DNA of 64,000 nucleotides from an uncultured Bifidobacteriaceae bacterium (lineage in GTDB: Bacteria; Acidobacteriota; Vicinamibacteria; Vicinamibacterales; UBA2999). The translations under genes and the position numbers were made by a program. The DNA lies in the NCBI GenBank assembly GCA_964505975.1, contig CAZDLW010000002.1:2915-66914 (forward strand), read 5' to 3'. Below, piece by piece: positions 16,908 to 34,712 of the stretch. The notes beneath the pieces were generated by a model. That model was not told the origin of the DNA and made no database searches. It worked only from the letters and a program-made list of their open reading frames with translations. How positions within the stretch are numbered: position 1 is the first letter of the stretch; each line of letters starts with the position of its first letter.

Positions 16908-16940
16908 ACCACGGGTCTCCTCGGGCGCCAGAGGACAGAT

Positions 16941-18973: not shown

Positions 18974-20659
18974 TCACATCGTTCGAGAGAGTCGTTCGTC
19001 TCCGATGTTGTCGTACGCGGCGACGCTGGCAAGATGCGACGCGCTGATGTGCCGGTCGAGGACCCGTGCGCGACGGGCGGTTCTCACGAGTGCGACGAGT
19101 TGTTGCCGATCCGTGGCATGGGCGCTCGCCTGACGGAGTGTCAGCCGGCGGCGTCCGACTGCCGCGGCCAGTGCCTGGTCGAGCGTGCGCATCCGTTCAG
19201 CGCCGCTGCCCTGAAGGCGAGCGATTCCGGTGAAGTCGCCTTTGCCGAGAAGTGAGCCCACTTCGACGGATCCGACGACCACATCCTGCACCGGGACCAG
19301 GCCACCACCAAGGCCTCTCAGCGCACGATAGGTGAATGCCGCTCGCAGCACCTTGCCCAGCGCGATGCGGCCTTCGGCGCCCGCGTGCGTGGTCGCGCCC
19401 GAGGCCATCATGCGCAGTGCGGCTAGGGTGGTCGGCGCGACAACGCCCACGACGACGATTCGATGACCCGCGGCGGCGCGGAGTACTTCGTGCACCACGC
19501 CGGCTGGTTGTGGCGCGACGATGAGCAGCACGTCCGGAGCCTCGGCTGCTGCCAGCCTGATTGCATCTGCAGGGTTGCTGTCCGCGTCGAGCGCTCGTTG
19601 GCTGACGAACTCGCCGGTAAGGTCATGATCGGGAATGCTGCCCGGTGCCAAGGCGATGACGTAGCCGCCGCGCCGGCGGCCTGCGAAATCCGCAACCGCC
19701 GAAGCCAGCTCCGACATGTCCGTTTCAGTGGGTGCCGACACGACAATCAGGCCCTCGCCATCGCATGTCTCGCGAACCTGCCGGGGGATATGCTTGTGAA
19801 GGTGCTGCAGGGTTCGCTGGCGGTGGAACCGAAGCACAATCCCGGGACCGCAGCGATCCCTGAATGAACGACACGTGACTTCTCCAAGTTCCTCTGTCAG
19901 CAGGACCCAGTCGCCGTCTGTGCCGGCTCGCCAGCCGTTGCCCTCGCCGTTGGCAATCGTGGCGTTCAGTTGATCCAGCGTCGCAGCGTCGAGCGGCTCT
20001 GTGTCTAGCGGCTCTATCCGCTCGTTGATGCGCGCGGCCGCGGGACGTCCCGCCCGCAGGTATGCGGCCGTGGCTCCCCTGGCCATCGCACGGGCGATGA
20101 GTTCGGTCAGTTCCACTGGAGCTCCTTTGCCGCTCGAGGCGTCCACATGCTCGACACGGGTCGGCGACGTTCCTTGGGCGGCTGTAACCGAGCGTGTCGG
20201 TCCCGCGCTGTCATACAAGGATGACTGCGGCCCTGTCTCGAACGGAGCGACAGCGCTCTGGGGCATCAGACTCGCGCTGTGAGCTGGATCACCGGACTGT
20301 TCGTTCTGGGTTGTCGGGGGCGGAATGAGAACGGGGGCATCCGTGGTTTCCCGGACGTCGCGTCGCAGCTCGATGTAGAGCGCGTCGCTCTGCCGTGCGG
20401 CCATCGCGGTCAGTGCCCCCGTCGTTCCGGCGCCGGGCACGCTCTCCACGACGGTCCCGCCTTCCTGCAGCGTGTGCCGGCCGGCCTCTGACAGGACCTC
20501 CTGCGCGAGGGCGTCCAGTGCCGCACGCGTCAGCGTAGCCCTGGCTACGTCTTGTCTCTGGGATCCGACGAGCACGTGAGGTCTTTCGCCTTCCCGAAGC
20601 ACGAGGCGGTCACCGCCAACGCGCTCGAGCGCTGCCCAGAGGGAGGGAAGCACACTCAT
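18974..20659 (-). CDS. PilT/PilU-family protein with duplicated N-terminal domain and degenerate ATPase motifs (pseudo-ATPase)
   Basis: The core is collinear with PilT, but the P-loop position reads 'SAPTETDMS' and the Walker B region reads 'APDVLLIVAPQP'. The His-box region reads 'GHRIVVVGVVAPT'. The C-terminus 'RMRTLDQALAAAVGRRRLTLRQA' is PilT-like. Two PilT-N-like segments lie at aa ~1-100 and ~185-280. Confidence 0.7.
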   Translation of the reverse strand: MSVLPSLWAALERVGGDRLVLREGERPHVLVGSQRQDVARATLTRAALDALAQEVLSEAGRHTLQEGGTVVESVPGAGTTGALTAMAARQSDALYIELRRDVRETTDAPVLIPPPTTQNEQSGDPAHSASLMPQSAVAPFETGPQSSLYDSAGPTRSVTAAQGTSPTRVEHVDASSGKGAPVELTELIARAMARGATAAYLRAGRPAAARINERIEPLDTEPLDAATLDQLNATIANGEGNGWRAGTDGDWVLLTEELGEVTCRSFRDRCGPGIVLRFHRQRTLQHLHKHIPRQVRETCDGEGLIVVSAPTETDMSELASAVADFAGRRRGGYVIALAPGSIPDHDLTGEFVSQRALDADSNPADAIRLAAAEAPDVLLIVAPQPAGVVHEVLRAAAGHRIVVVGVVAPTTLAALRMMASGATTHAGAEGRIALGKVLRAAFTYRALRGLGGGLVPVQDVVVGSVEVGSLLGKGDFTGIARLQGSGAERMRTLDQALAAAVGRRRLTLRQASAHATDRQQLVALVRTARRARVLDRHISASHLASVAAYDNIGDERLSRTM

Positions 20660-21105
20660 CGATCACACTCCGGAAGCCTACATGGATCTTCGAACTGTAG
20701 AGCCGCCCGGAATAGAGGTCGTGGTGACACGGCATGCACAGAACAGCGAACCACCCGCGCACGGACGACGCGCCGCACTCCGTTGAAACGCAAGAAGAGG
20801 TCGACAACGCGCCCGGGGCACAGGCGTTGGGTGGTCTCTGTCAGGACGCCGGTAGCCGACAGATTGATGGTCTTGGCTTCGGCCGCTCCTGCGACAGTCA
20901 GGCGAAGATCCGCGGCGAATTCCTCCGGCGTCAGGCGCCGAGCCTGTCGGCGCTCAACCGGGTCGTCTTCGACAATCGTGGCCGGCACGACGACCGCGTC
21001 GTCACCGGGCGACACGGTTGCGGCTTGCCAGTCCGCCTCGAGGCGGGCGATGAGGTCATCGAGCCCGTCGGCCGGAGCCATCGTCATCTCGTCGGAGGAA
21101 GTCAT
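20656..21105 (-). CDS. PilZ-domain (c-di-GMP receptor-type) protein
   Basis: 'ERRQARRLT' is the RxxxR motif and 'INLSATGVL' is the (D/N)xSxxG motif, with normal PilZ spacing. Its stop overlaps the downstream PilT-like start as ATGA (20656-20659). Confidence 0.7.
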   Translation of the reverse strand: MTSSDEMTMAPADGLDDLIARLEADWQAATVSPGDDAVVVPATIVEDDPVERRQARRLTPEEFAADLRLTVAGAAEAKTINLSATGVLTETTQRLCPGRVVDLFLRFNGVRRVVRARVVRCSVHAVSPRPLFRAALQFEDPCRLPECDR

Positions 21106-21500
21106 GTCGTTGCTCCAGGTCGCCGAGGGTGCAACTGCCCTGCCGGTGGGCGGCGTCGCACCGGGTCATTCCCCCGTGCGCCCAAGCTCCGTGGAGTGCT
21201 CGGATTGGCGAGCAGATCGGGCTCGGCCTCTCATCCCCTTTGGGGAGAATTCTCGCCGCATGAGAGAGTCTGAAAAGTCCCAGGTTCTCAATCGGGAGGC
21301 AGTCGAAGATCTTCACCCGATACACCTGAAGCATCGCAACGGCGTGCAACCATGGGCAGGTTCTGTCATGGTGACCGATCCTGTGCCACGACGCATCGAA
21401 CGTGCGGTCGCGCCACGGCCATGTGCCTGCACAGGTTTGCGTCCCTGTGATAATCTCCCCCGGGCGACGTTCCCGTCTCCCCGGGGCCACGCCCCGATCC

Positions 21501-22880
21501 ATGCTGTCGAGAGTGACGCCGCTCGAAAGGGTAAGCGCCAGATTGATTGATGAGTTGCCCGGTTCATCGGCGGCCGCGCCCGGAGCGCGCGCCTCTCGGG
21601 GAACCGGGCCTGGCGATCCTTCGCAAGCGTGTGAAGCCAGCGCGTTTGCAAGGGCGGTGTGGGGGCGCTCCTGGGACTGGCTGTTCGCCCTTCGTCACCG
21701 ACTACGCGCGGAAGTGCAACTGGTCGATGACGAGCTGCGATTCCTGTTGCACGAGGCGCGGCAAGGCTCGGACCTCTCGCGGGTGTTGGTAGCGGGGGAG
21801 TCCGTGCTGCGCGCAGCTGCCTCTCTCAGCCTGCGAACTCGAACGACGCGCGTTACCACGGTCCGACAGGCACACGTGATCTGCGTTCCAATTGCGACGC
21901 GCAGCGGCGCGCGCGGGGCACTGCTCGTTGCGTGTGCTGCCAGCGACGAGGAGTTGACGGATGCCGATCGCGCGCGGTTGGAGCTCCTGGGAGGATGGTT
22001 GGCTGGCGCCGTCGAGGCACATCTCGACAGTCCCGCCTTGTCGGACATCGGCGTGTACAACGGCGTGCCGATGTGGCGACTGTTGTCCAGCGTCGCCGAA
22101 ACAGGGCATGATCGCGATCTGGTGGCGGCGTTCATCGAGGCGCTGGCGATTTGGCACGACCTCGATGTCACGTCCTACGTCGAGACGAAGCCCCAGCTGT
22201 TCATTCGAGACGTCTCGACCGGCGGTCGTCTCGCATCCGGTCGTCCGGTGTCTCTGCCGCGGGAGAGCGTCCCACGGTCGCTGGAGTTCCGCCGACTGCC
22301 CCGAGCTCACATGGACGAGCCGGACGCTCGAACCCATGAGGACGTTCTCGTCACCAGCGTGCGCGGAGCCGGGTCTCGGGCCTGGCTGCTCGTGTTGCCG
22401 GACTGTCTCGAGGTGCAGTGCGATGTTCGAGTGCTTGCGCTCTATGCCGCGATGCTCGACTTCGCCATCGCATTTGTCAGCGAGGCAGCCGTGCGGCGTG
22501 TGCAGGCCGACCTCTCGGAGTGCCTCGCAGCCGGGCTTCATTCGGACACAACCGCAAAGGTGGCAGTCGAGCGGGTGTGTCGCGCGGTGGGTGGTGCTGC
22601 CGGCCGCCTGGTCATCGAATCGCCATCGGGCGCAGTGCTGGTGGACGTCCAGGCGTTCGGCGATTCGAGGAGCGCGAAGGATCTGGACGGCGCGGGTCGG
22701 ACGCTGAGCGTCAGACGGAGCGGTCGTGGACGCGGTGGATTCACACTGGATCTGTGGCAACCGGGCCAACGGACGTTCACTCCACAGGACCGGCTTCTCG
22801 TCGAAGCGGTCGCCGCGCTGTTTCAGACAGGGGTAGCCGCTCATCCGATATTCCACACTCTCGCGAACCAGCCACGTTGA
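21501..22880 (+). CDS. Hypothetical protein built of three GAF-like modules with no output domain
   Basis: GAF-like C-terminal strands and helices recur three times: 'ICVPIATRSGARGALLVACAASDEELTDADRARLELLGGWLAGAVE', 'AWLLVLPDC...LALYAAMLDFAIAF' and 'GGFTLDLWQPGQRTFTPQDRLLVEAVAALF'. Start set at the ATG at 21501 and is uncertain. Confidence 0.5.
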   Translation: MLSRVTPLERVSARLIDELPGSSAAAPGARASRGTGPGDPSQACEASAFARAVWGRSWDWLFALRHRLRAEVQLVDDELRFLLHEARQGSDLSRVLVAGESVLRAAASLSLRTRTTRVTTVRQAHVICVPIATRSGARGALLVACAASDEELTDADRARLELLGGWLAGAVEAHLDSPALSDIGVYNGVPMWRLLSSVAETGHDRDLVAAFIEALAIWHDLDVTSYVETKPQLFIRDVSTGGRLASGRPVSLPRESVPRSLEFRRLPRAHMDEPDARTHEDVLVTSVRGAGSRAWLLVLPDCLEVQCDVRVLALYAAMLDFAIAFVSEAAVRRVQADLSECLAAGLHSDTTAKVAVERVCRAVGGAAGRLVIESPSGAVLVDVQAFGDSRSAKDLDGAGRTLSVRRSGRGRGGFTLDLWQPGQRTFTPQDRLLVEAVAALFQTGVAAHPIFHTLANQPR

Positions 22881-23123
22881 CATCCGCGTCGAGCCCCCGG
22901 CTGGTTGCCAGTCCAGGGTGGCTGTTTCGAAGACCCTGAAGTGTACGTTTGATTTGTCGCGGAAATTGCGGAGAAAGTCTGAATCGCCCGGCGCCTTTAC
23001 CCACCAACGACCAGACTTTTGCGAGTATCCTAAATCTTCAATGACGTCGATCCAGACTGCAATGATCGCGTAACTTTCGGAAGAGTCACTAGTTGCGATG
23101 GCAGACAAACATCTGCCGAAATA

Positions 23124-23139
23124 TGGCGACTTGATTGCA
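23124..23139 (+). promoter_or_regulatory. Candidate sigma-54 (-24/-12) promoter upstream of EBP gene 23316
   Basis: TGGCGAC-TTGA-TTGCA against the consensus TGGCACG-N4-TTGCW, with correct GG-N10-GC spacing. It lies in an AT-rich intergenic region about 177 nt upstream of the ATG. Confidence 0.4.
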
Positions 23140-23315
23140 GCTCCACAAGTAGACGCCGTCAAGGGTCGACTTGGCGGGTGTTCCCCCTGGGGTACGCGGG
23201 CCACTGCTCAACCTGACGGGAGAACGTATCTCGTGCTCGAAAGTTGACAAGTTCCGTCGGCTGACGAGAGCAGGGCGAGTACCGAGAACACTCTAATTGA
23301 AACGGTTGAGAGACC

Positions 23316-24434
23316 ATGATTGAGGCAGTTGCCGAGGGCGCTCGCATCCCCCCCCCGATGTCCCCGATGCGGCCGAAAGGCCACGTCCAGCTGACGGGCC
23401 GGAGCCCCGAGATTCTCGCGCTGGACGAGGAGATCTCGCGGGTCGCCCGCTCCGACGCGAAGGTGCTGATCACGGGCGAAAGCGGCGTCGGAAAAGAGAT
23501 CGTCGCACGGAGCATTCACACGCGTGGACCTCGTGCTGCCCATGTCTTTGCGCCCGTCAACTGCGCTGGCCTGCCCGAGACACTGCTCGAGTCGGAGCTG
23601 TTCGGGCACGTGAAGGGAAGTTTCACAGGAGCCTACCGCGACAAACCCGGCAAGCTCGAGACTGCCCACATGGGCACGATCTTCCTCGACGAGGTCGGCG
23701 AGATGACGCTGCGCATGCAGGGGCTCCTGCTGCGCTTCCTCGAGACGGGCGAGCTCCAGAAAGTCGGGGCGGACGGAAGCGGGCGAATCGTCAACGTGCG
23801 AGTCGTGGCTGCGACCAATCGCGATCTCAGGGAGATGATCCGGCAGGGAAGCTTCCGGGAGGATCTGTTCTACCGCCTCAACGTGATCCACATTGTCGTG
23901 CCGCCTCTTCGCACACGGCGGCAGGACATCCCGGTGCTCATCGAACAGTTTTTGGCGCAGTTCGCGCACGCGAACCGGACTTCCATTGAAGCGGTCTCCC
24001 CGGATGCCATGAAGGCGCTGATGGAGTACTCGTGGCCCGGCAATGTCCGTGAGCTCGAGAACGTCATTGAGAGGCTGGTCGTCACCGTACAGGGTGCGCG
24101 GATCGAATACGAACATCTTTCGGCAGAGATCCGTGCGCAGGATTCAATCTCGTTCAGGCCGAAGCGTGAGCGTCGGCGGACTGTTGCGGACGACCTGTAC
24201 AAGCGGATGACCGAGCAGCACGAATCGTTCTGGGCGACTGTCTATCCGCTCTTCATGGACCGGGAGATCACGCGCGCGAACGTGCGCGAGGTCGTGCGCC
24301 GTGGTCTCGAGGAGGCGCGCGGCAACTACAAGATCGTTGCGCGGCTATTCAATATGGAAGCGCGCGATTACAAGCGCTTTCTCAACTTCCTTCGCAAACA
24401 CGACTGTCAGGTGCCGTTCAAGGAGTATCGCTAG
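23316..24434 (+). CDS. Sigma-54-dependent transcriptional activator lacking an N-terminal sensory domain (AAA+ plus variant C-terminal HTH)
   Basis: 'VLITGESGVGKEIVARSIH' is Walker A, 'GSFTGA' is the sigma-54 contact loop and 'GTIFLDEVGEM' is Walker B. 'WPGNVRELENV' is also present. Only about 25 aa precede the AAA+ core. The C-terminus is 'GNYKIVARLFNMEARDYKRFLNFLRKH'. Confidence 0.85.
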   Translation: MIEAVAEGARIPPPMSPMRPKGHVQLTGRSPEILALDEEISRVARSDAKVLITGESGVGKEIVARSIHTRGPRAAHVFAPVNCAGLPETLLESELFGHVKGSFTGAYRDKPGKLETAHMGTIFLDEVGEMTLRMQGLLLRFLETGELQKVGADGSGRIVNVRVVAATNRDLREMIRQGSFREDLFYRLNVIHIVVPPLRTRRQDIPVLIEQFLAQFAHANRTSIEAVSPDAMKALMEYSWPGNVRELENVIERLVVTVQGARIEYEHLSAEIRAQDSISFRPKRERRRTVADDLYKRMTEQHESFWATVYPLFMDREITRANVREVVRRGLEEARGNYKIVARLFNMEARDYKRFLNFLRKHDCQVPFKEYR

Positions 24435-24464
24435 CTGGCAATCTCTCCTGTCCGAACTCTGTGC

Positions 24465-24505
24465 GGGCGAGACGGTCTACAACGGCCGCTCGTCCCTTTC
24501 TTTCT
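24465..24505 (+). terminator. Rho-independent terminator after EBP gene
   Basis: GGGCGAGACGG...CCGCTCGTCCC is a stem with single-base bulges, followed directly by TTTCTTTCT. Confidence 0.55.
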
Positions 24506-24634
24506 GGGTCGATCCACGCTGATAACGCAATCGTAAGCCCGAAGACGAGAACGTCGCACGCCCTCACCTGCCGTCTCAGCGGCCTCAGCCTGTAATTGCT
24601 TTCCTGTCAGCACGATGACCGCCACTGGCGGACC

Positions 24635-24650
24635 CGGCGTCGCGGTTGCA
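24635..24650 (+). promoter_or_regulatory. Candidate sigma-54 promoter upstream of the FN3/Ig-repeat protein gene
   Basis: cGGCGTC-GCGG-TTGCA with GG-N10-GC spacing, about 58 nt upstream of the ATG at 24708. The -24 half is weak. Confidence 0.3.
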
Positions 24651-24707
24651 CCACCGTGACGCCGAACCGAAGCCCGAGTCGTCCCCACCACACTTCACGG
24701 CGAGACG

Positions 24708-27095
24708 ATGATGCAATACCGATCCAACGGCGTGCGGTCAATCGCGCGCGCGGCTGTCTGTGTGACACTGGTGCTTGCCCCCGCTCATGCGGCGCATGCT
24801 GACGCGATCGCGCTGATGTGGGACGCCAGTACCGATGTCAACGTCGCTGGATACGTCGTATATGTCGGGACCGAGTCGGGGACGTACGTGCAGAATTTCA
24901 ACGTCGCCAATGCAACCAGTTTCACGTTCCAGAACGCTGTTGCAGGACAGCAGTACTGCTTTGCCGTCTCCGCGTACGCGGACGGGCCGATCGAGGGGCC
25001 AAAATCGCCTGCGGTGTGCGGATACAGCAATGCGCCGCCCACACTCGTAAACCCGGGCAACCAGACGAGCGTTGTCGGGCAGCAGGCTGGGTTGCAGCTC
25101 GCCGGAACGGATCCGTACGGTGATCCACTCACGTACAGCGCCACTGGATTGCCACCGGGTCTCTCGGTGGTTCCCACGACCGGCTTCGTCTCGGGCACGG
25201 CCACGACCGCTGGAACGTTCAATGTGACTGCCGTCGTGTCGGATGGCGTGCTGAGTGCCGTGCAGTCGTTCGTCTGGACGATCCAGACGGGGTTGCCCGC
25301 GGCGGCGGTGCTCGTGAGCCCGTCTGGGTCCCTGTCGACGACGACGCCGGCGTTCGTGTGGCATGCCGTGGCCGGTGCGACGAGATACCGGTTGTGGGTG
25401 GACGATGCCAGCACCATCGACCCGCGCATCCAAGTCGACTACACGCCGGCACAGGCAGGATGTGCCTCTGGCTCCGGCAGTTGTCAGGTGACACCCGGCG
25501 TGGCCCTTGCTGTGGGTCCGGGCACGTGGTCGATCCGTGCGGCAAGTGGGGCCGGCGACGGCCCCTGGAGTGGCGCGCGTGATTTCGTCGTGCCCGATCG
25601 CACACCGCCCGTTGTTGCCATCACGTCACCGGTGAGTGGTGCAAGCCTCACCACCACGAACAGCAGCATCAGCCTCGCCGGCACGGCCTCGGATGACGTG
25701 CAGGTGACCCAGGTGATCTGGACGAACAGCAAAGGTGGCGGTGGAACGGCGACAGGGACCTCGAATTGGAACATCGCGTCGGTTCCGCTCCAGATTGGGA
25801 CGAACGCGATCACCATCACGGCGCGGGATGCTGGCGGCAATACGGCACTGGCCGTGCTCACTGTCCATCGCGCCGACGTCCGTATCCCGACAGTCACGAT
25901 CACGTCTCCCACGATGGCACCCGCTCACGTGACAACGGCAAGTCAGGTCGCGATCGCGGGAATGGCAAGTTCTACCGCAGGGGTGACGCACGTGACGTGG
26001 ACGAACGCTGCCGGTGGTTCCGGCACGGCCGTCGGGAACACGCAGTGGAACGTCCCCTCGGTCCCGCTGCAGGTCGGGAACAACGTCATCACCGTGATGG
26101 CACACGACGCTGCGGGTCGGACCATGCTTGCCGCGCTGACCGTGACGCGTACGGGTGCTCAGGGGAACGGCCCCCGGCCCACAGTGGTCATCACGGCGCC
26201 AACGCTGGCAGACACCTGGGAGACCCAGGCGCGCGTGATCACTGTCGCCGGAACGACCGCCGGCAACGGCGGCATCACTGAGGTCACATGGGTGACGGAC
26301 CGTGGTCACAGCGGGATGGCCATGGGCACGTCGTCGTGGAACGCAGCCGGTATCACACTCGAGCCGGGAGCGAACGTCATTACGGTGACCGCTCGGGACG
26401 CTGCTGGAATCACGGCCAGCGATACGCTGATGGTGAACTACCGCGCACAGACCGGCGCTGGCGTGTTCGGTCGATCCGCGACCCCAGCCCTGGCGGCTCC
26501 TCAGGGTGCCACTTCCACGAGTGACATACGAACGGCGGTTCCCAGGCAGATGACGCCGCCTCCCCAAGCCACGACCGCGGGGGCTCAAGGCGCGCAACCG
26601 AAAGCCGCCGACTCTACGCTCGTGAGGCAGGGTGGCGAACAGCGAAGTGCCAGCCCGACGTGGGTTGGTCCGGTCGGTGGTGGCGCCTCGATCACGACTG
26701 ACGCGCCTCCGTCGGCGCCGACGCGAACACTGAGGCCACCGGAGACCGTCCGCCAGCCGGATGGGACCAGTGAGGTTGATGCACTGCCAGAAGTCGGGAC
26801 GGACGGGACACCTGGAGACGAGCCCACGATCACTGTGGCGGCGCCAAGGGCCGGTCACGTCCATGTGACCGACGCGGCCACCGTGACATTGGCTGGCTCA
26901 GGGAGCGAGAAGATACGCGTGATCCGATGGGTGTCAGATCGGGGCGGCAGCGGCGTCGCCGCAGGAACGACTGTGTGGCAGATTCCAGACGTTCAACTCG
27001 AGGCTGGCGTCAATGTCATCGATGTGACCGCCGAAAGTGTCGATGGCCGGACGAGTCGAAGGCAGGTGCTGATCCGGTACGAGCCGAGCCAGTAA
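24708..27095 (+). CDS. Secreted multi-domain surface/adhesin-like protein (FN3, cadherin-like 'putative Ig' domain, four Ig-like repeats)
   Basis: Signal peptide 'AAVCVTLVLAPAHAAHA' and an FN3-like 'VAGYVVYVGTESGTY...YCFAVSAY'. 'GDPLTYSATGLPPGLSVVPTTGFVSGTATTAGTFNVTAVVSDG' is a He_PIG/dystroglycan-type Ig domain. Repeated 'PTVxITSP...W..P.VPLQ.G.N.ITV.A.DAAG' units follow. Confidence 0.8.
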   Translation: MMQYRSNGVRSIARAAVCVTLVLAPAHAAHADAIALMWDASTDVNVAGYVVYVGTESGTYVQNFNVANATSFTFQNAVAGQQYCFAVSAYADGPIEGPKSPAVCGYSNAPPTLVNPGNQTSVVGQQAGLQLAGTDPYGDPLTYSATGLPPGLSVVPTTGFVSGTATTAGTFNVTAVVSDGVLSAVQSFVWTIQTGLPAAAVLVSPSGSLSTTTPAFVWHAVAGATRYRLWVDDASTIDPRIQVDYTPAQAGCASGSGSCQVTPGVALAVGPGTWSIRAASGAGDGPWSGARDFVVPDRTPPVVAITSPVSGASLTTTNSSISLAGTASDDVQVTQVIWTNSKGGGGTATGTSNWNIASVPLQIGTNAITITARDAGGNTALAVLTVHRADVRIPTVTITSPTMAPAHVTTASQVAIAGMASSTAGVTHVTWTNAAGGSGTAVGNTQWNVPSVPLQVGNNVITVMAHDAAGRTMLAALTVTRTGAQGNGPRPTVVITAPTLADTWETQARVITVAGTTAGNGGITEVTWVTDRGHSGMAMGTSSWNAAGITLEPGANVITVTARDAAGITASDTLMVNYRAQTGAGVFGRSATPALAAPQGATSTSDIRTAVPRQMTPPPQATTAGAQGAQPKAADSTLVRQGGEQRSASPTWVGPVGGGASITTDAPPSAPTRTLRPPETVRQPDGTSEVDALPEVGTDGTPGDEPTITVAAPRAGHVHVTDAATVTLAGSGSEKIRVIRWVSDRGGSGVAAGTTVWQIPDVQLEAGVNVIDVTAESVDGRTSRRQVLIRYEPSQ
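25605..26441 (+). repeat. Three tandem ~88-aa Ig-like coding repeats (aa 300-388, 394-481, 491-578; period 94-97 aa)
   Basis: Hand alignment of the units starting PPVVAITSPVSG / PTVTITSPTMAP / PTVVITAPTLAD. The shared core is 'TxVxWTN..GGxGTAxGTxxWNxxxVPLQxGxNxITxxAxDAAGxT'. Confidence 0.75.
26823..27080 (+). repeat. Fourth, more divergent Ig-like repeat, separated by a 127-aa Pro/Thr/Ala/Gly-rich linker
   Basis: 'PTITVAAPRAGHVHV...IRWVSDRGGSGVAAGTTVWQIPDVQLEAGVNVIDVTAESVDGRT' aligns to repeats 1-3. The linker spans aa 579-705 (nt 26442-26822). Confidence 0.7.
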
Positions 27096-27142
27096 GGAAT
27101 GAGGTCCATGCACTGACGCGCGCATCACAGAACACAACTCAG

Positions 27143-27158
27143 CGGTACGTTTGTTGCC
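27143..27158 (+). promoter_or_regulatory. Candidate sigma-54 promoter upstream of the GAF-GGDEF gene
   Basis: cGGTACG-TTTG-TTGCc against TGGCACG-N4-TTGCW, with GG-N10-GC spacing. It lies 48 nt after the upstream stop in an AT-rich gap. A 7-bp hairpin (27168-27186) follows it. Confidence 0.4.
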
Positions 27159-27406
27159 ATGCCCTCTCGACTGACGGCTTCAGTCGGAAGGATAGAGTTG
27201 AGTGTAATCTGCAGAAATTTCAGGATGCGGCGATAATGATCGCCCCAAAACCAGGAATTTCTGGAGAAAATCTGCCCATCGGCGAACTTCGTTCGACGAA
27301 TTCGTCAACAAATCAATTTGAGTCTCCATTTCCTGTCTCCATTTCCATTCTGACCCCGAAGCAAGCGGCACAGCTTGGGACCGCACATGCAGTCGCGACC
27401 CCTGCG

Positions 27407-28783
27407 ATGCGACCGGACGAGCGCGTGCAGATGGTGGTTTCGCGTCTTGCCGAGATTGTGGGAGTCGCGGTGGCGTTCGTCGGCCGACGCGGCGAGACAT
27501 GGACCATCCTTGCGGAGTCGCCCAGTGGCGGGTTGCCGTTCTCGTCAGGGGCCGTACCGCGTGCTTTCATCCGTACGGCTGAGGCGCTCGGCACCGGTGT
27601 CACCGCCTGGCCCTGCCAGGACCGCGAGTGGACGCTGGTCGGATTGACAAGGAAACCGGATTCGCCCGTCGTGCTCGTACTCGAAAACGACTGGACGCTC
27701 TGTGCGTCGGCTCTCGCAGATCTCGGGCGCTCGTTGCTCTCGGGAAGTACGCAACCAATCGAGTGGTTCCCTCCTGAGGCCGGTATTGCGGCGCACACTC
27801 TGACGCGGGCGCTGGCGGAGAGCGGCGGGTTGAGGGACACGTGCGAGACGGTGCTGCGCCACGTCGTTCGCGCCGTCCCCAGCCGACTTGGTGCGATCGC
27901 CCTTCCGACGCCACACGGCGACCTGTCAGTGGTCGCTACGCACGGGTACCCGCTCGCCCTGGTGGAGCATCTCCGCATCCCCCCCGGCTCTGGAGTCATT
28001 GGGGCGGTATTCCAGTCGGGTTCGCCGATGGTTGTCGCGGACGTCACCCAGGTCTCTGCGATCCGGCGCAAGCGGCATCGTTATCGAACGGGCTCGTTCG
28101 TCGCGATGCCCATCACGGCTGAAGCCGGAGTTCTCGGCGTCGTCTGTCTCACCGATCGGGTGGATGATGGTGCGTTCTCGCTCGAACAAGTAGGAACGCT
28201 GCGCCTGCTGCTGATATCAGCCGGAATGGCGTTGGAGCGGGAGCGGGCCCGACGGCAGGCTCACGCGTATGCGCAGGCCGCGATCGTCGACCCCGTGAGC
28301 ACGCTCTTCAACAGGCGCTACTTCGAAATGCGCCTCGACGAGGAACTGCAACGGGCCGCACGGCAGGGAACAGACGTGGCGCTGCTGATGATCGACATCG
28401 ACGAGTTCAAAGGGATCAACGACACCTTCGGCCACGTAACTGGGGACACCGTGATCAAGGATGTCGCACAGTTGCTGCGCGGGTCCGTCCGCGTCTTCGA
28501 CGTCTGCGCGCGATACGGCGGCGAGGAGTTCTCGGTGGTCATGCCGGGCAGCAGCGCGGAAAGCGCGGCATTGATTGCCGAACGCATCCGCCAGCGGATA
28601 GCCGCGTACCGACCGGCAGATCACCGGTTGCGCGATCTTCGGGTGACGGCCAGCCTTGGTGTCGCGAAGTCATGGGCGGGTGTAACCGCCCTGGACCTGA
28701 TCGAGCGTGCTGACCGAGCGCTGTATGCGGCCAAGCGCGCGGGCAGCAATCGAGTGGTGGTCAGCGGGTCAGCGGACCAGTAG
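27407..28783 (+). CDS. Diguanylate cyclase with N-terminal GAF-like modules (GAF-GGDEF), intact active site and I-site
   Basis: 'RYGGEEFSVVMPG' is the GGEEF active site. 'RVFD' lies five residues upstream and forms the RxxD inhibition site. 'IDIDEFKGINDTFGH' is present, and the GAF segment is 'GSGVIGAVFQSGSPMVVADV...SFVAMPITAEAGVLGVVCL'. Start moved to the ATG at 27407. The in-frame stretch 27236-27406 has GC3 of about 46% by hand count and looks non-coding. Confidence 0.85.
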   Translation: MRPDERVQMVVSRLAEIVGVAVAFVGRRGETWTILAESPSGGLPFSSGAVPRAFIRTAEALGTGVTAWPCQDREWTLVGLTRKPDSPVVLVLENDWTLCASALADLGRSLLSGSTQPIEWFPPEAGIAAHTLTRALAESGGLRDTCETVLRHVVRAVPSRLGAIALPTPHGDLSVVATHGYPLALVEHLRIPPGSGVIGAVFQSGSPMVVADVTQVSAIRRKRHRYRTGSFVAMPITAEAGVLGVVCLTDRVDDGAFSLEQVGTLRLLLISAGMALERERARRQAHAYAQAAIVDPVSTLFNRRYFEMRLDEELQRAARQGTDVALLMIDIDEFKGINDTFGHVTGDTVIKDVAQLLRGSVRVFDVCARYGGEEFSVVMPGSSAESAALIAERIRQRIAAYRPADHRLRDLRVTASLGVAKSWAGVTALDLIERADRALYAAKRAGSNRVVVSGSADQ

Positions 28784-29114
28784 CAGCGACGCCTGAATCA
28801 GCCCGCCCCATCGAGACGCAAGACATCCCATCGAGAATCGTCAGCGAACCCGCGGCCACGGGCGCCCAGCGCTGCAGGAGGGCCATCGCGTGATCCGTGG
28901 TCGCGAAACGCGAGCACCGGACCACGACCGATGCCGTCGCGTCATCGGAACGGGCGACCTGGATCCACCAACTGTGTTGATCGTCGTGCACGCCATGAAC
29001 AGCCGCAATCCAGTCCATGGCGTCGCCATTGACGTGGCGTCCGTCGAGGGCGGACGCAAGCGTGTGCAGTCCGAGCTCCGGGGGAGGAAGGTGGGGGGTG
29101 GAGAGAGACCGCAT
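28761..29114 (-). CDS. Hypothetical small protein (117 aa)
   Basis: It has the best coding-like frame in this gap, with GC3 of about 75% by hand count. The sequence 'DAMDWIAAVHGVHDDQHSWWIQVARSDDATASVVVRCSRFATTDHAMALLQRW' looks like a real fold. Its 3' end overlaps the cyclase gene by 23 nt. No family recognised. Confidence 0.4.
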   Translation of the reverse strand: MRSLSTPHLPPPELGLHTLASALDGRHVNGDAMDWIAAVHGVHDDQHSWWIQVARSDDATASVVVRCSRFATTDHAMALLQRWAPVAAGSLTILDGMSCVSMGRADSGVAATGPLTR

Positions 29115-29358
29115 GCGTTCCGATGTACCAGGACTCGTGCCAGATGCGGGGGCGGCGTAGTGACTTGGGCTAAGCTGTTGGTGAGACGAAATTTGTGCGT
29201 GCAGACCCGAACCTGCGCGTATCCACCGACACGGGGAAATCGCAAAATTGTAATAATTCGCCCGACTTTTTGTGATTTTCTTGTTGAGTTTCTTCTGCTT
29301 CGTACGGCAGACTATCGTCTCTCCCATCTACAAGCATTGCTACTACTCAGCATCTAAA

Positions 29359-30561
29359 ATGGGGAATCCGCTGTTGACAAACGGGCTTGCGCGGTCGCGC
29401 CCTCAGCCAGTTCTGATCGGCGAGAGCCAAGCCGTTTGCGAGTTGCGCAAGGACATCGACGCTGCGGCCCGGACCGACGCCAAGGTCTTGGTTCTCGGGG
29501 AGACAGGCGCGGGCAAAGAGGTCGTTGCGCAACTGATTCACGCGCAGAGCGCGCGGATGCGGCGGCCCTTCGTTGCCGTGAATTGCAGTGGCATTCCGGA
29601 AACGCTGCTCGAGTCGGAGCTGTTCGGTCACATGCGAGGGAGCTTCACGGGGGCGTACCGCGACAAGCCAGGCCTCGTGCGGCAGGCCGATCATGGAACG
29701 TTGTTTCTCGACGAACTCGGGGAGATGAGCCTCCGAATGCAGGCCGTACTGCTCCGGTTTGCCGAAACGGGTGAGATTCAGCCTATCGGAGCCGATGCCG
29801 TAACCGGGCGAACGGACGTCCGCCTCATCACGGCCACCAATCGAGACCTCCGGAAGCAGATCGAACTGGGTGTGTTTCGGGAGGATCTGTATTATCGACT
29901 CAATATCATCCAGATCTACGTGCCGCCGCTGCGCGAACGGGGCGACGACGTCCTGATCCTGGTGCGGCACTACCTCAGGCAGGCGAGTGAAGCCCACGGA
30001 TTGTCGACGCCCGAGGTGACCGCCGATGCCGAGCAGTTGTTGGTCGCCTACCCTTGGCCGGGAAACGTTCGCGAACTGAAGAATATCGCCGAGAGGCTTG
30101 TCGTACGTGCCTCCGAGGCCGCGATCGGGCCCGACGATCTGCCGCGCGAACTCCGTGGCGAGCGACAGATGGTTTCTCCGTCCCGTTGGATGCCCGACAC
30201 GGTGCCGCCGCGTCCGACCGTCCCGGGACCGCCCTCCGAACAGACCTCGGCAACCGTCGACCGTCTGTGGGAGCGCCTGTTGGCAGGGGAGGATTTCTGG
30301 ACGGTTGTCCACCAGCCCTTCAAGGCGCATGAATTGACGCGCGACGATCTGGCCGCGCTGATTCATCGCGGCCTAGAGCACACGCGCGGCAGTTATCGGG
30401 CGCTCCTCACGGTCTTCGGGCTGCCGGCTACCGATTACAAAAGGCTTCACGCGTTCTTGTACCAGCAGAATTGCAACCTTCCCGTAGGTCCGTATCGTGC
30501 GGCGAAGGCCGGCCTGAATCGCTACACACGGGGCTCGTCGACCTACTCGTCCGCCTCGTGA
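29359..30561 (+). CDS. Sigma-54-dependent transcriptional activator lacking a sensory domain (paralog of 23316..24434)
   Basis: 'VLVLGETGAGKEVVAQLIH', 'GSFTGAYRDKPG', 'GTLFLDELGEM' and 'WPGNVRELKNI' match the paralog. The C-terminus 'GSYRALLTVFGLPATDYKRLHAFLYQQNC' parallels the other copy. Start at the ATG at 29359, after an AT-rich stretch. Confidence 0.85.
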   Translation: MGNPLLTNGLARSRPQPVLIGESQAVCELRKDIDAAARTDAKVLVLGETGAGKEVVAQLIHAQSARMRRPFVAVNCSGIPETLLESELFGHMRGSFTGAYRDKPGLVRQADHGTLFLDELGEMSLRMQAVLLRFAETGEIQPIGADAVTGRTDVRLITATNRDLRKQIELGVFREDLYYRLNIIQIYVPPLRERGDDVLILVRHYLRQASEAHGLSTPEVTADAEQLLVAYPWPGNVRELKNIAERLVVRASEAAIGPDDLPRELRGERQMVSPSRWMPDTVPPRPTVPGPPSEQTSATVDRLWERLLAGEDFWTVVHQPFKAHELTRDDLAALIHRGLEHTRGSYRALLTVFGLPATDYKRLHAFLYQQNCNLPVGPYRAAKAGLNRYTRGSSTYSSAS

Positions 30562-30711
30562 ACGATGCGGCGCTGGAGCGTGCGGCGTACGGGTCGGGAT
30601 CGCCGCCCGAGATCGCAGCCCATACCGCCGAGCCGCAGGTCCGTGCCCGGAGGCGTTCCCCCCCGCATCGAGGCGTTGGACCCGCACGCCTCTTGCCGTG
30701 TGCGCACCGTC

Positions 30712-31293
30712 ATGGACGCTGAGCTTGCCGCCGCGTTTCGACAGGTTGCGGCCAACATGGAGCGAATTGCCAGCGACCCCTATGTCGAGTCGTTGTCCCG
30801 CGCCATTGATCTGTTCGAGCGCACGTTTCGAACGGGACACAAATTGCTCGTGTTTGGAAACGGAGGGTCCGCAGCAGACGCGCAACACCTGACCGCGGAG
30901 CTCGTGGGGCGCTTCTTGGCGTTTCGTCGTCCGCTCCCCGCGATCGCCTTGACAACGAATCAGGCGCTCCTCACGGCGTGGAGCAACGACCGATCCTTCG
31001 AGGAGATCTTCAGCCGCCAGGTAGAGGCCCTTGGCGAGCCAGGGGACCTCGCATGTGCACTCTCCACGAGTGGCCTGTCACGAAATGTCACGAACGGGCT
31101 GCGTGCGGCGCGGGAGATGGGGCTCAGCACGATTGCGTTGACGGGCCACGGGGGCGGAGAGCTCGGCGGCCTGTGCGACGTGTTGCTCGCGGTTCCCCTG
31201 AGCGACACGCCACGAATCCAGGAAGTCCACCTGGTCACATACCATCTGATTTGCGCCGCCCTGGAGCAACGGATTGTGGCTCGGGGAACTTGA
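30712..31293 (+). CDS. gmhA: D-sedoheptulose 7-phosphate isomerase (SIS domain)
   Basis: 'LLVFGNGGSAADAQHLTAELVGRF...ALTTN...ALSTSGLSRNV...ALTGHGGGEL...PRIQEVHLVTYHLIC' shows the GmhA hallmarks. Confidence 0.85.
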   Translation: MDAELAAAFRQVAANMERIASDPYVESLSRAIDLFERTFRTGHKLLVFGNGGSAADAQHLTAELVGRFLAFRRPLPAIALTTNQALLTAWSNDRSFEEIFSRQVEALGEPGDLACALSTSGLSRNVTNGLRAAREMGLSTIALTGHGGGELGGLCDVLLAVPLSDTPRIQEVHLVTYHLICAALEQRIVARGT

Positions 31294-31630
31294 GTGCGGC
31301 CACTCCCTTCTCTCCTTCCACAACCAGATAGTCGTACATCAGGGCTTCGTCGAACACCTCGTAAAATCGCGCGGCGAGCGGCTCGTGCGCCGGGTGTCGA
31401 AGGTATGCCTCGAGACCGACAACGTCGTCGAACTCCAGAAACGCGGCGTACGAGTAATCGGTGGACATGCGGTGTTCGTAATCGCGTCCGTGCGTGACCC
31501 GGTGCCCTACGCGTACGCGCCGGATTGAGGGGATCTCCTGGAGGGCTGTGACGAGCGTGTCAGCCAACGCCCCGCGCTGTTCGAGTGAGACGTCGGCGCG
31601 GGGGCGAAAGAGAACGAGATGCACGATCAC
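31235..31630 (-). CDS. Dabb-family (stress-responsive alpha/beta barrel) protein
   Basis: 'MIVHLVLFRPRADVS...IPSIRRVRVGHRVTHGRDYE...YSYAAFLEFDDVVGLEAYLRHPAHEPL' is the typical Dabb pattern. The tail overlaps the gmhA 3' end by 59 nt. Confidence 0.75.
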   Translation of the reverse strand: MIVHLVLFRPRADVSLEQRGALADTLVTALQEIPSIRRVRVGHRVTHGRDYEHRMSTDYSYAAFLEFDDVVGLEAYLRHPAHEPLAARFYEVFDEALMYDYLVVEGEKGVAALKFPEPQSVAPGRRKSDGM

Positions 31631-31723: not shown

Positions 31724-32332
31724 CTACCGGCGGAAACGTGTTCGTGGGCGATCGGCCCTTCCTCGAGGTGCCGACGACGACGGCGCGGTCGCGTTGCGAG
31801 AGCGTGGTCCGGCATCCCGCGTGCGAGGACGCTGCCGAGGTTCCTGTTCCCCGCCGGCGTGCGATGAGCGTTCTGGTCGTTCACGCTCGACCGGCACGTT
31901 CGGAGCCCCCCTGCGCGAGCGTGCCGCGTATTCGGTGGCTGACGGGTCGCCATGCTGGCGAACGAACTTGCTCCGGCGTCGGTCGATATTCCGCTGCCGT
32001 TTGGCGTCCTTATATCGTTGCCGCGGATCGCGATGGTCACCGCCTGGTCGCCAATCACGATGACCGGATTGCGAGGGACCACCGCTCATCGATCTCGGGC
32101 CCGATCGTCCCGATCGTCGCTGGTCCGTGGGGTTCCGTCGGGACATCAACTCTTCTCGTGCGGCGTCGGGCGACTCCCACAGCCGGCCGCGGGCGAACCA
32201 CTTCATCACCGCGTCCGGATGCTTCTCCTTGAGTCGCCGGAATGTCGGCACCAGCTCATCGCGTCTGGCGGAGCGAAACGCCGTAGGGAGGTTACCTGCG
32301 ATGATCGTCCAATATGCGTAGCGCGGAGGCAT
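31724..32332 (-). CDS. Hypothetical protein: ~65-aa globular N-terminus plus ~135-aa extremely Arg-rich tail
   Basis: It starts 6 nt after the stop of the upstream response-regulator gene. The N-terminus is 'YWTIIAGNLPTAFRSARRDELVPTFRRLKEKHPDAVMKWFARGRLWESPDAARE'. About 45 of 202 residues are Arg by hand count. Confidence 0.5.
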   Translation of the reverse strand: MPPRYAYWTIIAGNLPTAFRSARRDELVPTFRRLKEKHPDAVMKWFARGRLWESPDAAREELMSRRNPTDQRRSGRSGPRSMSGGPSQSGHRDWRPGGDHRDPRQRYKDAKRQRNIDRRRSKFVRQHGDPSATEYAARSRRGAPNVPVERERPERSSHAGGEQEPRQRPRTRDAGPRSRNATAPSSSAPRGRADRPRTRFRR

Positions 32333-32338
32333 AGTCTC

Positions 32339-33799
32339 TCAATCGTACGCGAAGTTCCTCGACCGTCTGAGCTTCTCCACGAGAGTGGTTCGTTTCAGCC
32401 CCAGGAGGTCCGCAGCCTTGTTGCGATTGCCGGCGGTAAGTTCGAGCGCCCGCCGTATCAGGTCGCGTTCGATCGTTGCCAGGTAGCGGGGCATGTCCAG
32501 ACCGCTTTCCGGAAACTCCACGGGTGGAGCGGCCGTCGCTCGAGCGACCGGCTGTGTTTCCGCGGGCAGATCCCCCACGTCGATCTCTCGGCGCCCGCCG
32601 TTCAGGGCAACTGCTCGTTCGATTGCGTTCTCGAGCTGCCGCACGTTGCCCGGCCACTGGTAGGCCATCAGGGCACGCATTGCGCCCTGCGAGAGCTGCA
32701 TCGGCATCCCGGGCGCAAACTTCTCCAGGAAGTGTTTCACCAGGACTGGAATGTCGTCCCGACGGTCGCGAAGCGGTGGCAGTCGAACAGGAATCACGTT
32801 GAGCCGGTAGTACAGATCCTCGCGGAAGGTGCCCTCGCTCACCATTCGTGTGAGGTCGGAGTTCGTAGCGGCAATCACTCGGACATCGACCTTGACCGTA
32901 TTGCTGTCCCCGACGCGCTCGAACTCCCGTTCCTGGAGCGCACGCAGCAACTTCATCTGCAAGCCAGGACTCATCGTCCCGACCTCGTCGAGAAAGAGCG
33001 TGCCCCGATGGGCCTGCTCGAATCGCCCCTGACGTGCGCCAACGGCACCGGTGAAGGCACCGCGCACGTGGCCAAACAGTTCAGCTTCGAGGAGGGTTTC
33101 GGGAATCGCACTGCAGTTCAGCGCGACGAACCGGTGCGCACGGCGAGGGCTGTTGTGGTGTATCGCCCGGGCTACTATCTCCTTACCCGTGCCTGTCTCG
33201 CCGGTGATCAGGATGGTACTGTTCGAACGGGCCACGGTCTCGAGGAGCTGAAATAGCGCCTGCATAGGCTGACTGCGGCCGAGGATTCCTCCGAACTGAT
33301 AGCGCTCTTCGAGTTGCCGGCGCAAGTAGGCGTTTTCCGATTTGAGATGGCGCTGTTCCATGGCCTTGTGCAGGACGTGCATCAACTCGTCGAACTGGAA
33401 CGGCTTGGCGATGAAGTCCGACGCCCCCCGCTTGATGGCGTCGACCGCGTCCTTGACAGTCCCATACCCGGTGATGACCAGGGCGATGATGCTGGGGTAT
33501 CGTCCGCGCGCGGCTTCGATGACGCGTGTGCCGTCGATCCCGGGCATGCGCAGGTCCGTGATGACGATGTCGAAGGCGAACTGATCCAGCAGGACGAGTG
33601 CTCGCTCGCCGCTGTCGGCCTCGACTACCTCGAAGCCCCGATCCGCCAGCCGTTCGGCCATCAATCCCCTCAGCGCCGGCTCGTCATCGACGAACAGGAC
33701 ATGAGGCCTGGTTTCAGCGTTCTGTAACAATCGCCAATATATTGACACTCTTGGCGATTGTTGGCCAGACACGTCATCGATCTTTTCGATGGATGTCAT
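32339..33799 (-). CDS. NtrC-family sigma-54-dependent response regulator (REC + AAA+ + Fis HTH)
   Basis: 'HVLFVDDEPALRGL...FDIVITDLRMPGIDG' is the REC domain. 'ILITGETGTGKEIVARAIH', 'GAFTGA' and 'GTLFLDEVGTM' are the AAA+ motifs. 'GNRNKAADLLGLKRTTLVEKLRR' is the HTH. Start at the ATG at 33799. Confidence 0.9.
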   Translation of the reverse strand: MTSIEKIDDVSGQQSPRVSIYWRLLQNAETRPHVLFVDDEPALRGLMAERLADRGFEVVEADSGERALVLLDQFAFDIVITDLRMPGIDGTRVIEAARGRYPSIIALVITGYGTVKDAVDAIKRGASDFIAKPFQFDELMHVLHKAMEQRHLKSENAYLRRQLEERYQFGGILGRSQPMQALFQLLETVARSNSTILITGETGTGKEIVARAIHHNSPRRAHRFVALNCSAIPETLLEAELFGHVRGAFTGAVGARQGRFEQAHRGTLFLDEVGTMSPGLQMKLLRALQEREFERVGDSNTVKVDVRVIAATNSDLTRMVSEGTFREDLYYRLNVIPVRLPPLRDRRDDIPVLVKHFLEKFAPGMPMQLSQGAMRALMAYQWPGNVRQLENAIERAVALNGGRREIDVGDLPAETQPVARATAAPPVEFPESGLDMPRYLATIERDLIRRALELTAGNRNKAADLLGLKRTTLVEKLRRSRNFAYD

Positions 33800-33945
33800 G
33801 GGTTCATCGAGACGGTGTAGCGCTCGAGCCGCTAACGCGTCGCCAGGATGAGCCGATACAGCCTTATGTAGCGGCTGACGCGGAGATACCGGTGGCAGCC
33901 CTGGTCCCACCCAGAACATCCTGGGCTCTGAGGAGCAAGCGTTTT

Positions 33946-34665: not shown

Positions 34666-34712
34666 GTCATGCCGTTGACGATCTGGCGCGCCATTGTCGT
34701 CAACGTGATGAC
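34666..34712. promoter_or_regulatory. Extended interrupted inverted repeat upstream of the sigma-factor gene
   Basis: GTCAT-gcc-GTTGACGA-(15 nt including GGCGCGCC)-TCGTCAAC-gtg-ATGAC. It lies in an AT-rich intergenic region of about 480 nt, about 175 nt upstream of the ATG at 34888. Confidence 0.3.

Follow-up and report, generated by a model that had tools for sequence, protein, structure and literature searches.

The 12-kb segment at positions 18974-31293 of a 64-kb stretch of contig CAZDLW010000002.1 (hereafter the window; GC content 64.8%) was judged to be a lineage-conserved, largely self-regulating signalling cassette of Vicinamibacteria that combines sigma-54-dependent transcription with signalling by c-di-GMP (bis-(3'-5')-cyclic dimeric guanosine monophosphate). 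Taken jointly with the mechanism proposed below, this reading is held with modest confidence, on the favourable side of even. Surface proteins are probably the output that the cassette switches on.

The original prediction, made from the nucleotide sequence, had listed nine genes in this segment, and all nine were recovered by inspection of reading frames, Pfam and profile searches. The GC1/GC2/GC3 pattern (GC content at the three codon positions) of the genome also agreed with that list. In order along the window, the genes encode a PilT-like pseudoenzyme (pseudo-PilT) and a PilZ-domain protein (PilZa), both on the minus strand, a protein of three sensor-like modules (X), a sigma-54 activator of the enhancer-binding protein family (EBP1), a secreted Ig-repeat protein, a GAF-GGDEF cyclase, a small orphan protein, a second enhancer-binding protein (EBP2), and the phosphoheptose isomerase GmhA. 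Every gene compared was under purifying selection, with ratios of nonsynonymous to synonymous substitution rates (dN/dS; Nei-Gojobori estimates against the related loci L001 and L099) of 0.04-0.31. The lowest values were those of EBP1 (0.037), EBP2 (0.07), the cyclase (0.11) and PilZa (0.13), followed by pseudo-PilT (0.17, against L001), the Ig-repeat protein (0.19), and X and the small gene (0.31 each).

Conserved gene order and sigma-54-type promoters

Relatives of the cassette were collected with two anchors. Pseudo-PilT had more than 170 metagenomic relatives with approximately 42% identity; a scan of genome contigs with its single sequence gave no match, and a profile scan of species-representative genomes detected 14 loci, all in metagenome-assembled genomes of Acidobacteriota/Vicinamibacteria; in all, 14-16 loci were recovered with this anchor. 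The second set was anchored on EBP1 and comprised the best 80 of 360 relatives, almost all of which were labelled Vicinamibacteria, Vicinamibacterales, Luteitalea or gp6; L049 is an EBP1 ortholog from a Luteitalea metagenome-assembled genome. Absence of conserved co-localisation had been named beforehand as the result that would speak against a functional module; the genes were in fact found to travel together across many Vicinamibacteria genomes.

In the loci designated type A, tblastn searches placed PilZa and pseudo-PilT divergently from a 120-amino acid (aa) receiver protein, X and a further PilZ-like protein (PilZc), followed by a gap, a third PilZ-like protein (PilZb) with EBP1, a gap, the GAF-GGDEF cyclase, another gap, EBP2, a Dabb-domain protein, a basic protein, and an EBP with a response-regulator domain (RR-EBP). 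Type B loci contained two further PilZ-like proteins and a third EBP. The PilZc-PilZb-EBP1 core was present in most of the 80 EBP1 loci, and the full cassette in roughly the 20 closest. Three to five small PilZ-like proteins occurred in the cassettes of relatives (e.g. L002 6601-6921 and L008 8058-8707), although the gene caller had missed PilZc of L002, and PilZb overlapped the start codon of EBP1. As the relatives carry up to five PilZ proteins together with an I-site (inhibitory site) domain on X, the EBP operons appear to be tied to c-di-GMP sensing. A close relative, L099, repeated exactly the arrangement of the window (X, EBP1, Ig, cyclase, small gene, EBP2, gmhA and Dabb) with identities of 97% for EBP1, 92% for EBP2, 87% for the cyclase and 79% for the Ig-repeat protein.

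The intergenic regions were then considered for sigma-54-type elements. The bare pattern GG-N10-GC is frequent in this GC-rich DNA, with 110 matches scoring at least 12 in a simple weight scheme, and conservation was therefore taken as the test of a promoter. Three such elements had been predicted; the elements proved to be real, being invariant in alignments of orthologous regions whose intergenic DNA was otherwise poorly conserved, and their number rose to four. By pattern, position and conservation, the four -24/-12 elements are sigma-54-type promoters.

The element of the PilZa/pseudo-PilT operon (CGGCAGGGCAGTTGCA, 21130-21145, minus strand) lies approximately 20-25 nucleotides (nt) before the PilZa ATG, and CGGCAG....GTTGC was invariant in 10 aligned loci. 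The 64 kb contained only four exact TGGC-N7-TTGC matches, among them the element of the EBP1 operon (TGGCGACTTGATTGCA, 23124-23139, plus strand), an operon that includes PilZb where this gene is present. This element was conserved as TGGCGACT...TTGCA in all 14 loci of the first set, stood at a constant distance in 47 of 77 EBP1 loci, and was invariant in a 13-locus alignment with a mean identity of 47%. The element of the cyclase gene (CGGTACGTTTGTTGCC, 27143-27158, plus strand), located after the Ig-repeat gene, showed GG.AC..TTGTTGCCA without variation in 11 aligned loci having a mean identity of 42%; it was identical in L099 and present in L038. The fourth element precedes the Ig-repeat gene (CGGCGTCGCGGTTGCA, 24635-24650, plus strand). 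Its GG and GTTGCA were invariant among the window, L034 (TGGTTGTCCGGTTGCA), L037 (TGGTCGTCTGGTTGCA) and L031 (TGGTCAACTCGTTGCA), approximately 60 nt before a homologous ATGCA start, and the element was also retained in L099.

Two further conserved elements accompany the EBP1 promoter. An inverted repeat at 22971-23021 (GAAAGTCT...AGACTTTC, the second arm containing AGACTTT) lies approximately 105-155 bp before the -24 element and is a putative enhancer site for EBP binding; the repeat was invariant in the 13-locus alignment and identical in L099. A proximal palindrome, GGCAGAC-AAAC-ATCTGCC (23100-23117), directly abuts the -24 element and took the form GGYAGAC-AAAC-GTCTRCC across the same alignment, with GGYAGACAAACGTCTRCC kept in all aligned loci and identical in L099. 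A related sequence, GGCAGAC-TATC-GTCT (29306-29320), was seen in a conserved non-coding region before EBP2 (29240-29330), where no -24/-12 element was found. GGCAGAC itself was not enriched in the window. In the divergent region between PilZa and X, the motif GAGAGAGTCTGAAAAGTC (21262-21279) shares ARAGTCT with the upstream repeat of EBP1, and three of the four occurrences of A[AG]AGTCT/AGACT[CT]T in the 64 kb fell within regulatory DNA of the cassette, so this motif was presumed to be regulatory. The search of the long 5' regions for riboswitches and leaders gave no Rfam match.

The region before X behaved differently from the four promoters. A sigma-54 element was conserved there in most relatives but was found neither in the window nor in L001, both of which instead had an extended -10-like sequence (TGTGATAAT; CCTGTGATAATCTCC at 21440-21460, approximately 50 nt before the start of X). 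This sequence suggests that X is perhaps independent of sigma-54 in the sub-clade of the window. With regard to base composition, the gaps X|EBP1 (GC 0.547), Ig|cyclase (0.521) and 29100-29355 (0.516) were indeed AT-rich relative to the window (0.648), as had been predicted, whereas EBP1|Ig (0.630) and PilZ|X (0.643) were not.

The conserved sigma-54 targets were first of all the EBP1, cyclase and PilZ/pseudo-PilT operons, and the cassette thus reads as an autoregulatory circuit. The earlier proposal that sigma-54 drives a surface gene gained conserved elements before both the Ig-repeat and the cyclase genes, but had to be narrowed, since the Ig output belongs to one sub-clade and the main targets are the operons of the cassette itself.

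Proteins of the cassette

EBP1 (23316-24434, plus strand) and EBP2 (29356-30561 in an open reading frame from 29272, plus strand) gave strong matches to Sigma54_activat (PF00158; E=4e-64 and E=1e-63, respectively). Both contained Walker A (GESGVGKE in EBP1, GETGAGKE in EBP2) and Walker B (FLDEVGE and FLDELGE) motifs, and a GSFTGA loop retaining F-T-G-A; Ser at the second position of GAFTGA is a tolerated variant. Only about 25 residues in EBP1 and 20 in EBP2 precede the AAA+ domain, and no N-terminal REC, GAF, PAS or V4R domain was present, placing both by domain content in the sensor-less class of EBPs, like PspF. They were 46% identical over their full length, including an unusual C-terminal domain that they share. 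The prediction of two sensor-less paralogous activators was thus borne out. EBP1 was 84-86% identical among loci whose Mfd proteins were 72-77% and whose pseudo-PilT proteins were approximately 41% identical, and EBP2 was 73-75% identical to its relatives.

PilZa (20656-21105, minus strand) is a candidate c-di-GMP receptor, as predicted: it scored 25.7 bits against PF07238 (cut-off 22.5), and its canonical motifs RRxxxR (ERRxAxR) and NxSxxG (NLS(A/S)TG) were invariant in 17 orthologs. A 4-nt ATGA overlap joins its stop codon to the start codon of pseudo-PilT, an arrangement by which the two genes are predicted to be translationally coupled.

Pseudo-PilT (18974-20659, minus strand; 561 aa) had no Pfam match and scored 76 bits on TIGR01420, far below the cut-off of 319. 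It matched the PilT structure 2ewv with E=2e-17 as a single sequence (phmmer) and E=3e-30 as a family profile, and the resemblance extended over approximately 350 residues. Alignment to Aquifex PilT showed that Walker A had changed from GPTGSGKS to APTETDMS and the Asp box from IEDPIE to LAPGSI (overlapping the segment ALAPGS), while the Walker B Glu motif FVGE was replaced by IVAP (segment PDVLLIVAP) and the His box GTLHT by GVVAP (segment VVGVVAP). Equivalent substitutions were fixed in an 18-member alignment of the family. The description as a pseudo-ATPase is therefore appropriate, as originally proposed; judged by these motifs, the protein is a homolog of PilT and not a functional member of the PilT/PilU retraction ATPases.

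Pseudo-PilT also possesses an additional conserved N-terminal domain of about 100 aa and a low-complexity linker rich in Pro and Glu. Residues 1-100 (20360-20659, minus strand) were the best-conserved part of the protein, and the domain recurred in 153 representative clusters, at the protein start in nearly every case. In an AlphaFold2 model its order of secondary structure, alpha-beta3-alpha2-beta3, equalled that of the PilT N domain, and HMMER gave weak in-register second matches to it in pseudo-PilT relatives. A search for N-domain duplication within pseudo-PilT by BLASTP detected none, and hhalign gave E=0.2, which is not significant. On the basis of the model and these weak matches, the domain is probably a diverged, ancient internal duplicate of the PilT N domain.

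These features bear on the view that the genes are mere neighbours, in which PilZa and pseudo-PilT would work for a type IV pilus or a secretion machine with its genes at another site, the cyclase would supply c-di-GMP generally, the EBPs would regulate unrelated genes, and the synteny would reflect a stable region beside mfd-surA-nusG. PilZ-PilB/PilT-type partnerships are indeed known in pilus systems, for instance PilZ-FimX-PilB of Xanthomonas, and synteny in these genomes covered everything between mfd and the RR-EBP gene, not the cassette alone. We nevertheless consider this view very unlikely, because, with the exception of EBP2, X and the small gene, all units have a conserved sigma-54-type promoter beside two sigma-54 activators, and because the cassette holds together while gmhA, an epimerase gene and a 9-kb insertion come and go. 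Moreover, the motifs of pseudo-PilT would preclude ATP hydrolysis, and no type IV pilus genes were found in the 64-kb window.

X (21501-22880, plus strand) consists of three tandem PAS/GAF-like modules. It had been described as a protein made only of GAF-like modules; its AlphaFold2 model (mean predicted local distance difference test score, pLDDT, 71) did contain three alpha/beta modules of the PAS/GAF type with long helices between them, but the Pfam match to GAF_3 was weak. The best Foldseek matches were PAS-GAF-PHY arrays of phytochromes. The start codon is uncertain, and residues 1-41 were modelled with low confidence. In relatives, X is longer (568-673 aa) and ends in a degenerate GGDEF domain whose RxxD I-site is correctly spaced, e.g. 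RASD-x5-GEGEI. X of the window ends just before this domain, which the close relative L099 keeps.

The cyclase (27407-28783, plus strand) was predicted to have intact A-site (active site) and I-site motifs, and the reading was correct: GGEEF and RVFD were both present, the RxxD motif lying five residues upstream of GGEEF (RVFD-x5-GGEEF, RVFDVCARYGGEEF), and the protein matched PF00990 (E=4e-45) and TIGR00254 (169 bits, cut-off 37). Its identity to relatives was 52-57%.

The Ig-repeat protein (24708-27095, plus strand) has a signal peptide and FN3/He_PIG/Big_7 repeats, and is predicted to be secreted. One or more Ig/FN3-repeat genes were located directly 3' of EBP1 in L031, L034 and L037, which like the window have no receiver gene, and in L099 (79% identity); the gene was absent from about 15 other complete cassettes and had no homolog in the first 16 loci. 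To judge from these loci, the Ig-repeat gene is an output limited to the sub-clade of the window (L031, L034, L037 and L099). Its origin as an unrelated lineage-specific insertion, suggested by its absence from those first 16 loci, was also considered and was ruled out by the homologs after EBP1 and the promoter conserved in these four loci. Where the window has the Ig-repeat gene, after EBP1 and before the cyclase promoter, L038 has a nucleotide-sugar dehydrogenase (11131-12504), and the slot therefore appears to accept variable, envelope-related cargo. A metagenome scan with the Ig-repeat protein yielded one unlinked locus, which had strong -24/-12 matches just upstream of its Ig homologs.

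The small orphan gene (28761-29114, minus strand; 117 aa) has a convergent orientation relative to the cyclase gene and a divergent one relative to EBP2, and had no Pfam or PDB match. That it was not a gene at all had been considered in view of its GC content at third codon positions (0.58-0.66), the missing Pfam match and a gap that seemed non-coding in type A loci, and this view was overturned by minus-strand tblastx/tblastn conservation. An open reading frame at the same position in L032 was 56% identical (E=3e-28), and homologs with 38-44% identity were found in L038 and nine other loci, including type B loci. The homologs, P0284 being among the relatives, always lay between the cyclase gene and EBP2. 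The predicted orphan is thus a real gene conserved at the protein level, and its strand is minus.

gmhA (30565-31293, plus strand) is an adjacent envelope gene, present where it had been predicted. It adjoins pseudo-PilT in type A loci, follows EBP2 in the window and L099, and is not nearby in type B loci; it is therefore a movable neighbour that can sit on either flank, and not a fixed member of the cassette.

Beyond gmhA, minus-strand genes for the Dabb protein (31292-31630), the basic protein of about 130-167 aa (31940-32332) and the RR-EBP with an HTH_8 domain (helix-turn-helix, HTH; 32339-33919) were syntenic in nearly all full-cassette loci, and the conserved neighbourhood thus reaches beyond the 12-kb segment. 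Further downstream (34669-39981) are genes for a sigma-70-family protein (410 aa), a PAS-HisKA-HATPase-REC hybrid kinase and a GAF-GAF-SpoIIE (PP2C) phosphatase; the same set occurred in L100, and the region is accordingly dense in regulators. On the other side, a NusG paralog of 181 aa (5901-6446, plus strand) directly follows surA and mfd and was 74-89% identical in all relatives having this flank. Operons for the envelope or for polysaccharides are often controlled by specialised paralogs of NusG. Between the genes for Dus and the Uma2 nuclease-like protein, a 370-aa protein (7712-8824, plus strand) with a homolog in L001 matched Sigma54_activat only weakly (53 bits), contained an AAA lid as well as a canonical HTH_8, and is possibly a degenerate, non-activating EBP. 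The following block of about 9 kb (8825-17720) encodes the Uma2 nuclease-like protein, a Na+/solute symporter, a CarboxypepD_reg/beta-barrel outer-membrane protein, an amidohydrolase and an NT5C-like protein. As it was absent at the equivalent position in L002-L017 of the first set, it was taken as an insertion, specific to this lineage, that separates the nusG-dus region from the cassette.

Relation to known regulatory systems

Sensor-less EBPs are known to be controlled in trans, PspF by PspA and HrpR/HrpS by HrpV. The EBPs of the cassette resemble PspF in consisting of an AAA+ core and a C-terminal domain, with EBP1 aligning end to end with the PspF model, and they resemble HrpR/HrpS in being adjacent paralogs. 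In contrast to these systems, no PspA/IM30 or HrpV domain was found in any cassette protein, the candidate partners being the PilZ proteins, the dead PilT and the PAS/GAF array; in addition, no HTH_8 is recognisable at the C-terminus of the EBPs, and the cassette is linked to c-di-GMP. The EBP1 operon has its own sigma-54-type promoter, of which we know no tested parallel in the Psp or Hrp systems. The cassette may work like PspF/PspA without being a member of the PspA-type systems.

FleQ and VpsR are EBPs controlled by c-di-GMP. Their AAA+ core is homologous to that of the cassette EBPs, and they too couple an EBP with c-di-GMP as well as with surface or biofilm outputs; FleQ is also modulated by a partner protein of ATPase fold, FleN. 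They differ in having N-terminal REC-like domains and a canonical HTH_8, and the corresponding partner in the cassette would be a pseudoenzyme derived from PilT rather than a MinD-type ATPase. The PilT/PilU and PilZ-FimX-PilB systems likewise couple a PilZ gene to a gene of the secretion-ATPase fold; pseudo-PilT, however, has lost the hydrolysis motifs family-wide, has the extra N-terminal domain and Pro/Glu-rich linker, lacks a pilus gene context and is preceded by a sigma-54-type promoter.

The closest functional analogy may be BerB of Burkholderia cenocepacia, a sigma-54 activator tied to c-di-GMP that was proposed to be sequestered by the PAS-GGDEF-EAL protein RpfR and freed as c-di-GMP rises (PMC9684580). 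Similarly, X of the relatives, a PAS/GAF array with a GGDEF-like I-site domain, and the GAF-GGDEF cyclase adjoin the EBPs. The cassette differs in having no EAL domain, in its extra PilZ and pseudo-PilT proteins and in its phylum; moreover, X of the window has no GGDEF-like domain. From these likenesses we infer a control in trans analogous to that of PspF/PspA and HrpRS/HrpV and especially to that of BerB/RpfR.

Every domain family of the cassette is known, and the logic of its circuit is similar to that of EBP/c-di-GMP circuits already described. Three elements are new, namely the pseudo-PilT family, the multi-PilZ/EBP operon and the small orphan protein. The suggestion that the combination does not correspond to a described system held, as no account of it was found in the literature searched on PilZ, PilT, sigma-54 EBPs, c-di-GMP and Acidobacteria/Vicinamibacteria.

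A proposed circuit, its rivals and its meaning

The following mechanism is proposed. EBP2, which has no sigma-54-type promoter, would supply the entry point of the circuit. EBP1, alone or in mixed rings with EBP2, would bind repeats of the AGAC/GTCT type and remodel sigma-54 RNA polymerase at the four promoters, and this activation would raise the level of EBP1, the synthesis of c-di-GMP, the candidate pair of c-di-GMP receptors and the surface protein. Lacking a sensor, the EBPs would be regulated in trans, the candidate partners being the PilZ proteins with a pseudo-PilT ring as scaffold, and/or X; such partners would sense c-di-GMP or, by means of the GAF-like modules, a different ligand. 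Closure of the loop would commit the cell to a surface or envelope state in a switch-like manner.

In its most specific form, the pseudo-PilT ring with a c-di-GMP-bound PilZ adaptor would directly control the rings of the sensor-less EBPs as an anti- or co-activator, and would constitute, in combination with the cyclase and with self-activation of the EBP1 promoter, a bistable master switch of the cell surface in Vicinamibacteria. This version is offered as a speculation that we regard as unlikely.

The main rival is that the EBPs themselves sense c-di-GMP through the AAA+ domain, as in FleQ, BerB and VpsR, and that PilZa/pseudo-PilT, X, the small protein and the Ig-repeat protein are outputs. 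The AAA+ core of EBP1 aligned well with the structures of FleQ and VpsR, and PilZa/pseudo-PilT, having its own conserved sigma-54-type promoter, would certainly be a target. FleQ contacts c-di-GMP within its AAA+ domain (R144, R185/N186 and ExxxR); in a rough comparison, the Arg after Walker A was present in EBP1 (VARS) and was Gln in EBP2 (VAQL). The loss of several PilZ genes and of the I-site domain of X in the window without relaxation of the EBPs also agrees with direct sensing, and these reductions fit it somewhat better than control through partners. However, in nearly every locus PilZb overlaps EBP1 and belongs to its transcription unit, which is typical of a partner and not of a distant output, and the dead PilT has no obvious effector role, with no pilus genes nearby. 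Direct sensing was on balance rated as rather improbable.

Several observations weigh against the cassette and circuit as proposed here. The window has no receiver, PilZb, PilZc or I-site domain of X, and thus misses the trans-regulators best conserved in other loci, yet its EBPs are strongly constrained. The more distant EBP1 loci consisted of PilZ-PilZ-EBP1 alone, with no pseudo-PilT, cyclase or EBP2 within 10 kb, so that the full cassette is not obligatory for EBP1 function. A k-mer search gave no enhancer motif common to all four promoters, AGACAAA/TTTGTCT being common to the EBP1 and X promoters only. The EBPs had no Pfam HTH_8 match, even with E<=10 on the isolated C-termini; full-length PspF and NorR models did align through EBP1 residues 355-362, and by eye a Fis-like HTH is suggested by the segment GLEEARGNYKIVARLFNM..DYKRFLNFL. 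rpoN was not in the 64-kb window, and the relatives were not searched for it. Finally, the contacts between the EBPs and their partners, the binding of c-di-GMP and the route of feedback (through PilZ, pseudo-PilT, X or directly) are at present inference only.

The reductions also raise the question whether the window contains a decaying remnant of a fuller cassette, with a circuit that no longer works. The receiver, absent from L001 as well as from L031, L034 and L037, has been lost together with PilZb, PilZc and the C-terminal domain of X, and a truncated PilZc of 67 aa in L099 points to ongoing erosion; PilZc is gone in the window, and no remnants of PilZb or PilZc were found in its X-EBP1 gap. 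The remaining open reading frames are, however, all intact and show the low dN/dS values given above, the promoters, palindrome and upstream repeat are identical to those of L099, and other lineages without PilZb still keep the promoter directly before EBP1. Decay of the circuit therefore seems highly improbable and is the least favoured of the explanations considered here.

Vicinamibacteria (Acidobacteria subdivision 6) rank among the most abundant bacterial groups of soils; their regulation is, as far as we know, largely unstudied. With the cassette, a regulatory circuit would be defined in this group for the first time, and it links sigma-54 and c-di-GMP, two major regulators of bacterial lifestyle, through unusual parts, namely EBPs without a sensor or canonical HTH, up to five PilZ proteins and a conserved dead PilT. 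Its four short conserved promoters, enhancer-like repeat and small set of proteins are testable in a heterologous sigma-54 host without culturing. The cassette may show how motor ATPases come to be recruited as pseudoenzymes for signalling, and control of EBP rings by pseudo-PilT/PilZ, if true, would be a new mode of EBP control.

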